DNA of 64,000 nucleotides, from positions 10,010 through 74,009 of the forward strand of contig JBKHVI010000009.1 in assembly GCA_046570105.1 (NCBI GenBank), read 5' to 3'. Both the position numbers and the translations under genes were made by a program. Every line of letters begins with the position of its first letter. Within the stretch, counting starts at the first letter, position 1. The notes beneath the pieces were generated by a model. The model saw only the letters and a list, made by a program, of their open reading frames with translations, ran no database searches and was not told where the DNA came from. This document shows, piece after piece, positions 5,547 through 56,178 of this stretch. The DNA is from Bacteriovoracia bacterium. GTDB taxonomy: Bacteria > Bdellovibrionota > Bacteriovoracia > Bacteriovoracales > Bacteriovoracaceae.

Positions 5547-5595
5547 TTCAATTTTAACAGTATTAAACTGCGCCAGAATGAGACGGGCGAATTGA
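5547..5595 (+). repeat. internally deleted copy of the dispersed ~160-bp structured element
   Basis: TGCGCCAGAATGAGACGGGCGAATT (5569-5593) matches the 3' end of the reverse complement of element 51679-51839; degenerate left arm TTCAATTTTAACAGT. Confidence 0.7.
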
Positions 5596-5627
5596 GTTTA
5601 AATTGAAAAATTGGATACGTTTGAGAA

Positions 5628-30539: not shown

Positions 30540-30575
30540 CCCGCAACCTTTAAGCATTTGCATAAAATCCCGCTC

Positions 30576-30795
30576 CCCATTAAAATAAAAAAACTGGTGA
30601 GGGATAGAACCCCATGATGCCGGCATGGGCCCTCACCAGAAATCATCCTTACATTCATAAGGGATTTTTGATAAGGCCATAGAGCAACTCACGGGCCACC
30701 TCCTAAATTCTTAAGACATTAATTTGTTTGAACTCCGAACACTTTGCGTTGGAAAATATTCATCGCGCGATGGAAAAAAACGGACGTCAAAGCTG
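30576..30795 (-). repeat. tandem unit 1: structured sRNA / small-ORF transcription unit
   Basis: Homologous to 30817-31035 (period 240-241 bp). SD AGGAGG, GTG-start ORF 30633-30692 (MSCSMALSKIPYECKDDFW), three hairpins, and CTGGTGAGGG/CCCTCACCAG stem followed by T7 on the minus strand. Confidence 0.85.
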
Positions 30796-30816
30796 AGATT
30801 GCGCAAAATTAAATTA

Positions 30817-31035
30817 CCCCTTAAAATAAAAAAACTGGTGAGGGATAAACCCCATGGGCAGTACATGGGCCCTCACCAGAAATCATCCTTACATCCGTAA
30901 GGGATTTTTGATAAGGCCATAAAGCAACACATAGGCCACCTCCTAAATTTGTAAGCCAAAGAAAATGCAATACTTCGAATGCAATGTGTTGGAAGAAATT
31001 GACCACACGAAGGAAAAAATTGGCTAAACTAGCTC
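30817..31035 (-). repeat. tandem unit 2: structured sRNA / small-ORF transcription unit
   Basis: SD AGGAGG, ATG-start ORF 30873-30932 (MCCFMALSKIPYGCKDDFW), same hairpins and terminator as unit 1. Confidence 0.85.
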
Positions 31036-33433: not shown

Positions 33434-33446
33434 TGTGTCGAATCAC

Positions 33447-33494
33447 TCAATTCACCCGTTAGAGAGAACAGAATTTACCCACGGGTGAATTTGA
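33447..33494. repeat. minimal copy of the dispersed element (arms only)
   Basis: TCAATTCACCCGT-N21-ACGGGTGAATTTGA; same arm family as 51679-51839, with a compensatory G-C to A-T change. Confidence 0.7.
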
Positions 33495-33495
33495 A

Positions 33496-50749: not shown

Positions 50750-51673
50750 ATGACAAAAATTTTGTGTTTAATTCTTCTCATCACTTCCTGTGCAGCACCC
50801 ATTCGACGCACACCACTTGATCCTGGTCGCATGACTAATCAAAACACTAATCGCAATGTAAAAGACTTCAATCCCATTCGTAAAAAAATCGCACTCTTGA
50901 GTTTCTATAATGAAGCTCCTTTCGGCGGTGAAGACTTGGCGATTCAAGCGACTGAAGAGTTTCGTCGAGAAGTGATGCGTTCACGTGACTATCTGGTTGA
51001 TCCCACTGCCGCACAAATCTTTGGTAACTCAAAAGAAATTTATTCAGGTGGGGGAGTGAAGCTCGCTCAGCTAACTCGTAAAGCAAAAATGGCCGGCGTG
51101 AATTTGGTTATTTTTGGACGTATTGTTGATGCTCGTGTTCGCCAGGCCTCTGATGAAATTGGTTTTGTGAGAAAGACAAAAGCTCTCGCTGAAACAAAAG
51201 TAGAGATCAAAGTTTTTGATGTGATCTCAAGTAAAGAGCTATTGAGTGACACGGTTGATGGCACAGTTCACGACGATAACTTTCGTTTTCATTTATCTGA
51301 AGAAGAAGAGAACTTGGCCTATCGCCAGGATCTGATGCGCTATTCAACTCGCGTAGCTGTTCGTAAGTTTCTCCCACGCTTAATTAGCCTTGGTTCAAAA
51401 CTCGACTGGACCGGGCGAATCGCTAAGATTATCGGTACAAAAGTTTACATCAATGCCGGCCGCGATAGCGGAATCAACATCGGTGATATTTTAAAAGTTA
51501 TTACTGAAGGCCAAGATGTCTATGACCCTGAAACAGGCGCACTCATTGGTATCTCCAAGGGGGATATCAAAGGCACGCTTGAGGTGATGGATTATTTCGG
51601 GCCAGATGGGGCGATTGCCATTCTTCACTCGGGTGGTTCAGTCACTGAGGGTGATTTCGTACAGCTTTATTGA
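50750..51673 (+). CDS. lipoprotein, CsgG-like domain plus FlgT-C-like domain
   Basis: Lipobox ITSC; KKIALLSFYN; WTGRI...VYINAG..SGI.IGD. Confidence 0.7.
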   Translation: MTKILCLILLITSCAAPIRRTPLDPGRMTNQNTNRNVKDFNPIRKKIALLSFYNEAPFGGEDLAIQATEEFRREVMRSRDYLVDPTAAQIFGNSKEIYSGGGVKLAQLTRKAKMAGVNLVIFGRIVDARVRQASDEIGFVRKTKALAETKVEIKVFDVISSKELLSDTVDGTVHDDNFRFHLSEEEENLAYRQDLMRYSTRVAVRKFLPRLISLGSKLDWTGRIAKIIGTKVYINAGRDSGINIGDILKVITEGQDVYDPETGALIGISKGDIKGTLEVMDYFGPDGAIAILHSGGSVTEGDFVQLY

Positions 51674-51678
51674 TTATT

Positions 51679-51839
51679 TTCAAATTCGCCCGTCTCATCC
51701 TGGCGCACAGAACTTCTTAAGTAATGAAATTCAAGCCAGGATGAATCAATCATTAAACGAAGACTGCACGAGGCGTCCTCAAGATGTTTGTCGCTACTAA
51801 ATAACATACTTAGCTTCGGACTTTACGGGCGAATTTGAA
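51679..51839 (-). repeat. full copy A of the dispersed structured element
   Basis: 15-bp perfect inverted arms TTCAAATTCGCCCGT / ACGGGCGAATTTGAA; internal boxes shared with 56013-56178. Confidence 0.85.
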
Positions 51840-51856: not shown

Positions 51857-52525
51857 TTAAACGTACGGAATCGGATCTTTCATGCCAGCTTCAGTAAAGC
51901 CGCGCATGCGAAGGGCGCAGGAATCACACACACCACAGGCCTTATCTGAACGTGCGTAGCATGACCAGCTCAGCTCAAACGGAGCTTTGAGTTTTACTCC
52001 CAGCTCAACAATTGCTTTTTTCTTTAAGAGAATAACCGGCGTCTCGATCTTGATGTGGCTGGCCTTAGTACCAAGGCCCACCAATTTATTAAAAGCTTCA
52101 TAGTATTGCGGACGACAATCGGGGTAGCCGGGAGAATCTTCCCAGTTCGCACCGATGTATAAAATGCCCGCACCGACAACTTCCGCCCACGAGACAGCGA
52201 GTGAAAGAATGATCGAGTTTCTGAAAGGCACGTAGCTATCAGGAATAAGATCTGAGTCGCCTTGATAGTCTTTCACACTGATCGAAGCATCAGTCAGAGA
52301 GCTGCCGCCGATCTGTTGCAGAAAGCGCATATCAATAATTTTTCGCAAATGTTTGGGGATCTGATAGTGATCAGCGATTTTAACAAATGAGTCGTACTCA
52401 CGAGAAGAAGTCTTCTGGCCATAATCCATATGCAAGAACGCCACTGACTTGTGCTTTTTGACAGCTTCAGCTGCACACACAAGAGAGTCCATTCCACCGC
52501 TGACCAAGACAATGGCATCAACCAT
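51857..52525 (-). CDS. queC: 7-cyano-7-deazaguanine synthase
   Basis: SGGMDS, YGQK, YVPFRN, YPDCR and SWSCY...CGVCDSC motifs. Confidence 0.96.
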   Translation of the reverse strand: MVDAIVLVSGGMDSLVCAAEAVKKHKSVAFLHMDYGQKTSSREYDSFVKIADHYQIPKHLRKIIDMRFLQQIGGSSLTDASISVKDYQGDSDLIPDSYVPFRNSIILSLAVSWAEVVGAGILYIGANWEDSPGYPDCRPQYYEAFNKLVGLGTKASHIKIETPVILLKKKAIVELGVKLKAPFELSWSCYARSDKACGVCDSCALRMRGFTEAGMKDPIPYV

Positions 52526-55983: not shown

Positions 55984-56011
55984 AAAAGGGCCTCGAAAGA
56001 GGCCCTTTTTT
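55984..56011 (+). terminator. intrinsic terminator
   Basis: AAAAGGGCCTC-GAAA-GAGGCCCTTTTTT. Confidence 0.9.
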
Positions 56012-56012
56012 A

Positions 56013-56178
56013 TTTTTACAAATTTGCCAGTAAAGTCCGAAGCTAAATCTCATTTATATTCGAAGATTATTTAGAGGACGCCTTAAGCTTTCTACTAGAA
56101 AAGATAAGTTCATCCTGGAAGCCAATCCAAGCATTTAACTTCTACATAGCCAGGATGAGACTGGCAAAATTGTAAAAA
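56013..56178 (+). repeat. full copy B of the dispersed structured element
   Basis: 19-bp arms TTTTTACAAATTTGCCAGT / ACTGGCAAAATTGTAAAAA (1 mismatch); boxes AAAGTCCGAAGCTAA, GAGGACGCCT, TTCATCCTGG and GCCAGGATGAGAC. Confidence 0.85.

Follow-up and report, generated by a model that had tools for sequence, protein, structure and literature searches.

The window, that is, the whole 64,000-nt stretch of DNA that was analysed, contained a short dispersed element in two full-length copies and two remnants. Copy A, a 161-nt core-only unit on the minus strand at 51679-51839 (151.2 bits with the covariance model), was located between convergent genes, the left one having its stop codon at 51671-51673 and the right one ending at 51857; the right-hand gene is presumably QueC-like, as judged by eye from its C-terminal motif. 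Read along the minus strand, copy A consisted of TTCAAATTCGCCCGT, AAAGTCCGAAGCTAA, 29 nt, GAGGACGCCT, 25 nt, TTCATCCTGG, 31 nt, GCCAGGATGAG and ACGGGCGAATTTGAA, exactly the arms, boxes and spacers that the initial annotation had described. The 5' arm of the outer stem P1, TTCAAATTCGCCCGT (51825-51839), pairs with its 3' arm, ACGGGCGAATTTGAA (51679-51693), and each of the 14 P1 pairs was changed on both sides in some copy of the family. Box 1, AAAGTCCGAAGCTAA (51810-51824), comprised the junction AAA, the 5' strand of stem P2 (GUCC, 51818-51821) and a conserved GAA. Box 2, GAGGACGCCT (51771-51780), comprised a conserved GA, the 3' strand of P2 (GGAC, 51775-51778) and a conserved CGCC. The 5' strand of stem P4 was formed by box 3, TTCATCCTGG (51736-51745), and its 3' strand, together with the junction to P1, by box 4, GCCAGGATGAG (51694-51704).

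Copy B was a full core-only unit on the plus strand at 56017-56174 (129.8 bits), with its outer boxes at 56032-56046 and 56149-56159. As the initial annotation had stated, its four boxes were identical to those of copy A letter for letter, while its spacers of 27, 25 and 30 nt showed no evident likeness to those of copy A; its arm pair also differed from that of copy A, with complementarity intact. The unit began immediately 3' of a hairpin resembling an intrinsic terminator, followed by a T run (55989-56016), and lay 4 nt from the end of the convergent gene. The same terminator, which belongs to the upstream gene, was also observed in the genome G006, where the element is absent.

Four copies had originally been counted in the window, all of them between convergent genes. 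Copies A and B were indeed full length, but the other two were remnants. One, at 5563-5596 on the plus strand, began with the start of an outer terminal repeat, TTAAACTGC, joined to the last ca. 27 nt of the core; the other, at 33446-33495 on the minus strand, retained only the P1 arms around a 21-nt loop. Convergent context was supported by ORF calls for copies A and B and was judged by eye for the two remnants. At the site of the first remnant G006 carried a full framed copy (L058), and at the site of the second G007 carried a full copy (L057). The arm, allowing at most two mismatches, occurred three times in the window compared with 0.30 expected, a number reached by none of 100 shuffles. 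Relative to 200 shuffles, the fold of copy A had a z score of -7.41 as RNA and -6.19 as DNA, and that of copy B -4.07 as RNA. Elsewhere in the window, at 30558-30958, two tandem units of ca. 240 nt shared a 95-nt block with 91% identity and a 55-nt block with 80% identity, and showed no Rfam match at gathering score.

The source genome (G000), a 3.02-Mb assembly of 131 contigs that is 88% complete, contained 31 full-length copies at E<1e-8 when searched with a profile built from copies A and B, and a covariance model (R1) added three degenerate copies. The element was thus short (155-161 nt) and multi-copy, as is typical of miniature inverted-repeat transposable elements (MITEs), and it had no conserved reading frame, since the spacers were free in sequence. 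Searches with R1 recovered it in 4 of 11 genomes of the same genus and, within a second genus of Bacteriovoracaceae, in 5 of 26; a broader model (R2) detected it nowhere in a sample of 150 other genomes from the phylum. A search with lax filters of three congeners that were not carriers (G008, G005 and G001) detected it in none of them. A loose pattern scan of genome contigs matched at least 114 stretches; of the 80 loci tested with the model two were real, both in one metagenome-assembled genome titled Bacteriovoracaceae bacterium. A single locus emerged from a strict pattern scan of metagenome contigs, and it was not confirmed by the model.

The description of the element as new held for Rfam 15, as checked for copies A and B and the window. 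No match reached gathering score anywhere in the window, and none was obtained over copy A at E<=10. Over copy B there were only chance matches below gathering score; the best of them fell on the upstream terminator hairpin, while a few, at 13-20 bits (His_leader, U4, psm_mec, snoR144 and others), overlapped the element. No relevant description was found in the literature on Bdellovibrio- and Bacteriovorax-type bacteria or on MITE covariation and convergent genes.

Copies of the element occupied tiny gaps at the 3' ends of genes. According to crude ORF calls, the contexts in the source genome were convergent for 20 copies, tandem sense for six, tandem antisense for two and divergent for one; the corresponding counts for 31 copies in other genomes were 15 convergent, three tandem sense, seven antisense and three divergent, with one neighbour missing in a further three. 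Seven copies in the source genome were located just 3' of terminator-like hairpins of upstream genes. The 3' flanks of the 31 copies contained no consistent T run, and because no T run follows P1, the element itself was not comparable to an intrinsic terminator.

Several other repeats were observed close to copies of the element. A second short family, a G+C-rich palindrome of ca. 50 nt, adjoined several copies and was also present upstream of one Y1-like gene (G000:C28:18882-18917, C44:18170-18239, C12:51072-51126 and C60:8772-8828, as well as three tandem units at G007 L038). One copy in G007 (L054) was nested within a longer palindrome bearing CCAACAC/GTGTTGG, and the same word flanked one RAYT-like gene of the source genome (flanks of C8:19745-20080). 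The commonest arm of the element matched a tRNA-like T-arm/acceptor sequence at 14 of 15 positions, a similarity judged possibly due to chance; such T-arm-like sites were located at G000:C21:753, C21:14868, C107:3226 and C113:2768, and two of them resembled duplicated tRNA 3' ends, as at integrated elements.

Folding of the 31 copies from the source genome with RNAalifold recovered P1 (14 pairs, in the arms), P2 (GUCC/GGAC) and P4 (UCAUCCUGG/CCAGGAUGA), and 18 of the 27 pairs showed a compensatory change among these copies. The core was a three-way junction, with a P1 of 15-18 bp, a P2 of 4 bp and a P4 of 9-10 bp. In an alignment of 81 copies from two genera, which was fitted to the covariance model and for that reason leans towards structure, 96.1% of 2,184 cells were paired, compared with 78.1% after shuffling and 24-48% when the partner was slid; double-sided changes were present in 25 of 27 pairs (14 of 14 in P1 and 8 of 9 in P4), and none of 500 shuffles reached any of these measures. 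In P2, U:A was replaced by C:G in 18 copies and C:G by U:A in five and in one. Compensated variants of P2 included GCCC/GGGC, GCCU/AGGC, GCUC/GAGC and GUCU/AGAC. Those of P4 included CAUUCUGG/CCAGAAUG and GAUUCUGG/CCAGAAUC, and one of the second-genus genomes had a wholly different 10-bp helix as its P4. An alternative hairpin, UUGAGG-ACG-CCUCAA, was rejected, as the variants compensate in P2 and not there. The unpaired junction nucleotides were conserved across the two genera, and G-A was kept on both strands beside P2 (GAA and UNGA), an arrangement that could form a tandem G-A motif.

Of the multi-way junction proposed in the initial annotation, P1, P2 and P4 were therefore supported by covariation, but no middle hairpin was consistent among the copies. 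The contrast it had drawn between boxes and spacers, as opposed to uniform decay, was upheld, with the stems maintained by compensatory change. The segments between the stems, of about 37, 30 and 32 nt, kept their length and were free in sequence. Local folding of the spacers, which had also been suggested, was not borne out, as the mean z score against shuffles was -0.09, -0.04 and 0.01 for the three spacers over 62 copies. Nor did the idea that the spacers serve as guide or specificity segments gain support: they matched their own flanks no better than the flanks of other copies, and against the rest of the genome they yielded nothing beyond matches of 15-19 nt (E 0.002-0.05), about a third of which lay in other copies of the element.

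Comparison of copies at the same site in related genomes showed how these changes were distributed. In the closest pairs between G000 and G007 (L011/L033 and L007/L046), 0 of 17 and 0 of 18 differences fell within the 54 paired columns. Overall, same-site copies in these two genomes differed mainly in the spacers, and compensated double changes were present in other pairs. At the C22 site, which was colinear in three species, P1 had changed at about half of its positions and was fully paired in each. At one shared site, the core was found in opposite orientations in two species, indicating that repeated insertion into the same gaps occurs; divergence at a shared site is therefore not proof of compensation in place.

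The element was mobile, inserted DNA, as demonstrated by sites that are empty in relatives, by duplicated targets, by remnants left after deletion and by its patchy occurrence. The sites occupied by copies A and B were empty in G006 and G001. At the site of copy A in G006, the two convergent genes shared stop codons, and at the empty site of copy B the T run of the terminator directly met the stop of the other gene. The longest word common to both flanks of copies A and B was 5 nt. The earlier statement that target-site duplications are lacking consequently stood for these two copies but failed for the family, in which three clean empty sites revealed duplications of 12 bp (C44:11597 of the source genome, 173 bp inserted, empty in G007), 13 bp (C49:592, 164 bp inserted, empty in G007) and 10 bp (C1:32532, ca. 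167 bp inserted, empty in G006). Flanking direct repeats of 9-13 nt were present at 6 of the 31 copies in the source genome, while repeats of at least 8 occurred in 2.15% of 930 control flank pairs. One of these repeats, of 10 bp, flanked a copy on contig C38, for which G007 held only an arm remnant 9 bp away, and one copy in G006 had a 13-nt flanking repeat.

Over five core-only units, the duplications measured 10, 10, 12, 13 and 13 bp. The inserted units ran a few nucleotides past P1, and these extra ends were dissimilar between units; all five insertion sites contained a YAGK word, a tentative observation. Terminal inverted repeats were provided in every copy by the P1 arms of 15-18 nt, the sequence of which varied in the core-only form. 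Some copies consisted of the 3' part only, and remnants of the 5' arm alone also occurred.

A second form of the element was framed by additional sequence. In the second genus (g48), the core was bordered by ca. 28 nt on the left and ca. 50 nt on the right, both sides ending in inverted repeats that follow the pattern T[A/G]AACTG[A/C]CCC...TGGTGTTG (ca. 25 nt). At least five copies in G003 and G006 had such outer repeats directly beside the core, while pattern and profile searches located them around 0 of the 31 full copies in the source genome. In a pattern search with spacings assessed by eye, pairs of outer repeats ca. 236 nt apart enclosed the framed core and pairs ca. 175 nt apart enclosed a variant lacking P4; pairs 1,037 nt apart were found twice in G081 and once in the source genome (C3:76583-77619, outside the window). 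In both genomes the pairs 1,037 nt apart enclosed a 294-aa ORF. The C3 copy lay exactly at the stop codon of a gene and had a perfect 9-bp duplication as judged by eye, which fits IS1, whose target duplication is 9 bp. A second copy of this insertion sequence (IS) was located at C11:56856-57940, also outside the window. The 294-aa protein matched NCBIfam transpos_IS1 at E 6.5e-9 (36 bits, below the cut-off of 100) and the IS1/IS1595 zinc domain at E 0.052; it had no match in Pfam, and no match was obtained in a plasmid collection.

Framed copies shared with this IS its terminal repeats and part of its right subterminal sequence. Among five framed copies in G128, two had 9-bp and one had 8-bp duplications, and two framed copies in G074 had 9-bp duplications (all by eye); the G074 frame was a different repeat from the IS1-like outer repeat. 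The core was not found inside the 1,037-bp IS, and the ends of the core-only copies resembled no IS end found. All four carriers of the same genus encoded a transposase with at least 58% identity to the protein of C3, as against none of the seven non-carriers, which had only a transposase clade of at most 49% identity or nothing. As these carriers may be a single clade, this co-occurrence is not independent evidence. In the second genus, two of five carriers had a C3-type transposase and three of five lacked it at E<=1e-8. The initial annotation had reported no transposase in the window, and our results did not contradict this; a related IS is located elsewhere in the genome. Its proposal that the element is the substrate of an enzyme encoded elsewhere gained support in spirit, in that the element is mobile and its framed versions share repeats with an IS outside the window.

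The level at which the fold is required was addressed through the kinds of pairs tolerated. A strand-specific RNA should tolerate G:U far more than A:C. Among the 2,184 cells of the 81 copies, however, there were 30 G:U and 25 A:C (16 and 20 in P1, 8 and 1 in P2, and 6 and 4 in P4), and tandem contexts in the source and other genomes were split evenly, with nine sense and nine antisense by crude ORF calls. That G:U was no commoner than A:C and that orientation was unbiased argue against a strand-specific RNA. Pairing that was almost purely Watson-Crick, together with random orientation, suggested instead that it is needed on DNA or on both strands. It could still be that the core is a functional structured RNA riding on mobile DNA, be it an sRNA, a 3'-end or processing element, or else a self-cleaving ribozyme of a new kind, with the conserved junction nucleotides and the G-A loop as RNA tertiary or protein-binding motifs. 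The persistence of these nucleotides and of the G-A bases beside P2 across two genera is consistent with such an RNA, as are the occurrence of one core in two different frames and unframed, as if it were cargo, the excess of G:U in P2 alone and the full pairing of the much-changed P1 at the C22 site. Nevertheless, we consider a functional RNA fairly unlikely given the overall pair counts, the balanced tandem orientations, the lack of any Rfam match for copy A at E<=10, the location of seven copies just downstream of terminator-like hairpins and the unstructured spacers, owing to which the 4-bp P2 would close a loop of ca. 43 nt. Hammerhead, twister and hairpin ribozymes, K-turns, retrons and attC sites were also weighed by eye by their consensus features and set aside, as the covarying P2 or the dispersed context did not fit.

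Also considered was an HUH/Y1 enzyme that recognises structure and moves the core-only form while it is folded and single-stranded, in the way that RAYTs are presumed to move REPINs. The source genome contained 11 Y1_Tnp-like genes, two of them RAYT-like and nine belonging to a family of ca. 210 aa. The members of this family, located on contigs C14, C2, C62 (two), C33, C72, C59, C63 and C4, had a weak Y1 (HUH) signature, a basic N-terminus and no conserved flanks; further members were present in G003, G006, G007 and G008, in two genomes of the second carrier genus, G144 and G160, and in G044 of another genus. The family was found in all four carriers of the same genus but in only one of seven non-carriers, one member in the source genome had the core's 3' half immediately after it, as did its G007 ortholog, and the pairing constraint was restricted to Watson-Crick pairs, all of which would agree with such an enzyme. 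Nevertheless, the remaining 10 of 11 Y1-like loci had no adjoining core, including both RAYT-like genes, G008 had five genes of this kind and no element, and the family was missing from three of the five carriers in the second genus. Single-strand transposition of the HUH type (IS200/IS605) is not expected to produce target duplications, which makes those of 10-13 bp unexpected. Movement by an HUH/Y1 enzyme therefore appeared quite improbable, and the REP/REPIN-RAYT connection raised in the initial annotation was not sustained, given the 10 genes without a core and the existence of duplications. A derivative of IS200/IS605 (PATE, omega/reRNA) was likewise rejected, as the 88%-complete source assembly yielded no TnpB domain and duplications are present.

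Alternatively, the core-only form could spread through an RNA copy in the manner of a SINE-like retroposon, its fold being the recognition site of a reverse transcriptase. This would account for variable duplications and loosely defined ends, since duplication length ranged over 10, 10, 12, 13 and 13 bp, termini were unconserved and short unpaired tails were present, and some copies had kept only their 3' part. However, RVT_1 was not matched at E<=0.001 in the 88%-complete source assembly, remnants of the 5' arm alone exist as well, and the pairing showed no strand asymmetry. Spread by retroposition is therefore highly improbable in our view.

Taken together, the findings in this study make it reasonably probable that the element represents a previously undescribed MITE-type non-coding family with a structure-constrained core of ca. 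160 nt, distributed in two genera of Bacteriovoracaceae. The framed form would be moved in trans by the IS1-like transposase, while pairing within the core would be required in DNA or on both strands, where a hairpin or cruciform might, for instance, bring the two ends into contact or serve as a binding site for a protein. The copies in the window are of the unframed, core-only form, which has duplications of 10-13 bp and no conserved terminal sequence. Because the termini of this form are dissimilar and its duplications measure 10-13 bp rather than 8-9 bp, the IS1-like enzyme may not be what moves it. That the constraint is on Watson-Crick pairs alone, and that neither strand nor orientation is biased, speaks for a need on DNA or on both strands rather than for a single functional RNA; an RNA or cargo reading is still kept alive by the conserved bases of the junction and by the use of one core in different frames. 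A more far-reaching version, in which the folded core itself is recognised by the mobility machinery, with ends set by the limit of P1, duplications of 10-13 bp at YAGK sites and capture of the core by at least two unrelated frames, is decidedly unlikely. If the fold were recognised in this manner, the element would be a structure-specified mobile element of a kind undescribed in bacteria, or else a module of RNA or DNA, whether selfish or useful, that travels as MITE cargo.

Bacterial MITEs are mostly regarded as decaying leftovers of insertion sequences. In this family, a three-way junction with invariant junction bases persists across two genera, in different frames or in none. The family therefore provides a tractable case for studying the role of a conserved fold in a mobile element, whether by joining its ends, binding a protein or acting as RNA, and for asking whether structure rather than end sequence can specify transposition. 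For annotation, it accounts for about 35 blocks of intergenic DNA in each genome of these predatory bacteria, and the covariance model is now available for masking or studying the copies.

Several known systems resemble the element in part. MITEs derived from insertion sequences have lost the transposase gene and are moved in trans by the parent IS. The framed copies are similar in that they carry IS ends and have 8-9-bp duplications like the IS itself, but their interior is a conserved folded module and not IS sequence, and the copies in the window lack IS ends although the core-only form of the family has been inserted with duplications. Like the element, the REP/REPIN-RAYT system has scattered non-coding palindromes that are enriched where genes converge, Y1-type genes in the genome and a pairing constraint that need not act at the RNA level. 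In contrast, the core described here is not found flanking the RAYT-like genes and is accompanied by target duplications; it greatly exceeds a REP doublet in length, and its fold is a three-way junction and not a simple hairpin.

SPRITE, a terminator-like repeat of Streptococcus pneumoniae situated close to convergent genes' 3' ends, shares with our element a preference for convergent gene ends and the prediction of a stable fold (Delihas 2011, PMC3184786). As far as SPRITE is characterised in the part of that publication drawn upon here, our element differs in having no T run after P1, with several copies situated just after a separate terminator. The same source describes bcr1 of the Bacillus cereus group, a transcribed, MITE-like repeat of ca. 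155 bp with a fixed 5-bp duplication (Delihas 2011, PMC3184786). On the strength of the relevant portion of that account, bcr1 is comparable in its size, its non-coding and dispersed nature, its differing distribution between relatives and its direct-repeat flanks, and also in its multi-armed fold maintained by compensatory base changes (PMC3184786). Compared with the fixed 5-bp duplication reported there, however, duplications in our family measured 10-13 bp in the core-only form and 8-9 bp in the framed form (PMC3184786), and, relative to bcr1 as that portion presents it, the element in Bacteriovoracaceae is distinguished by three spacers that are free in sequence and kept in length, and by a core carried in two different frames.
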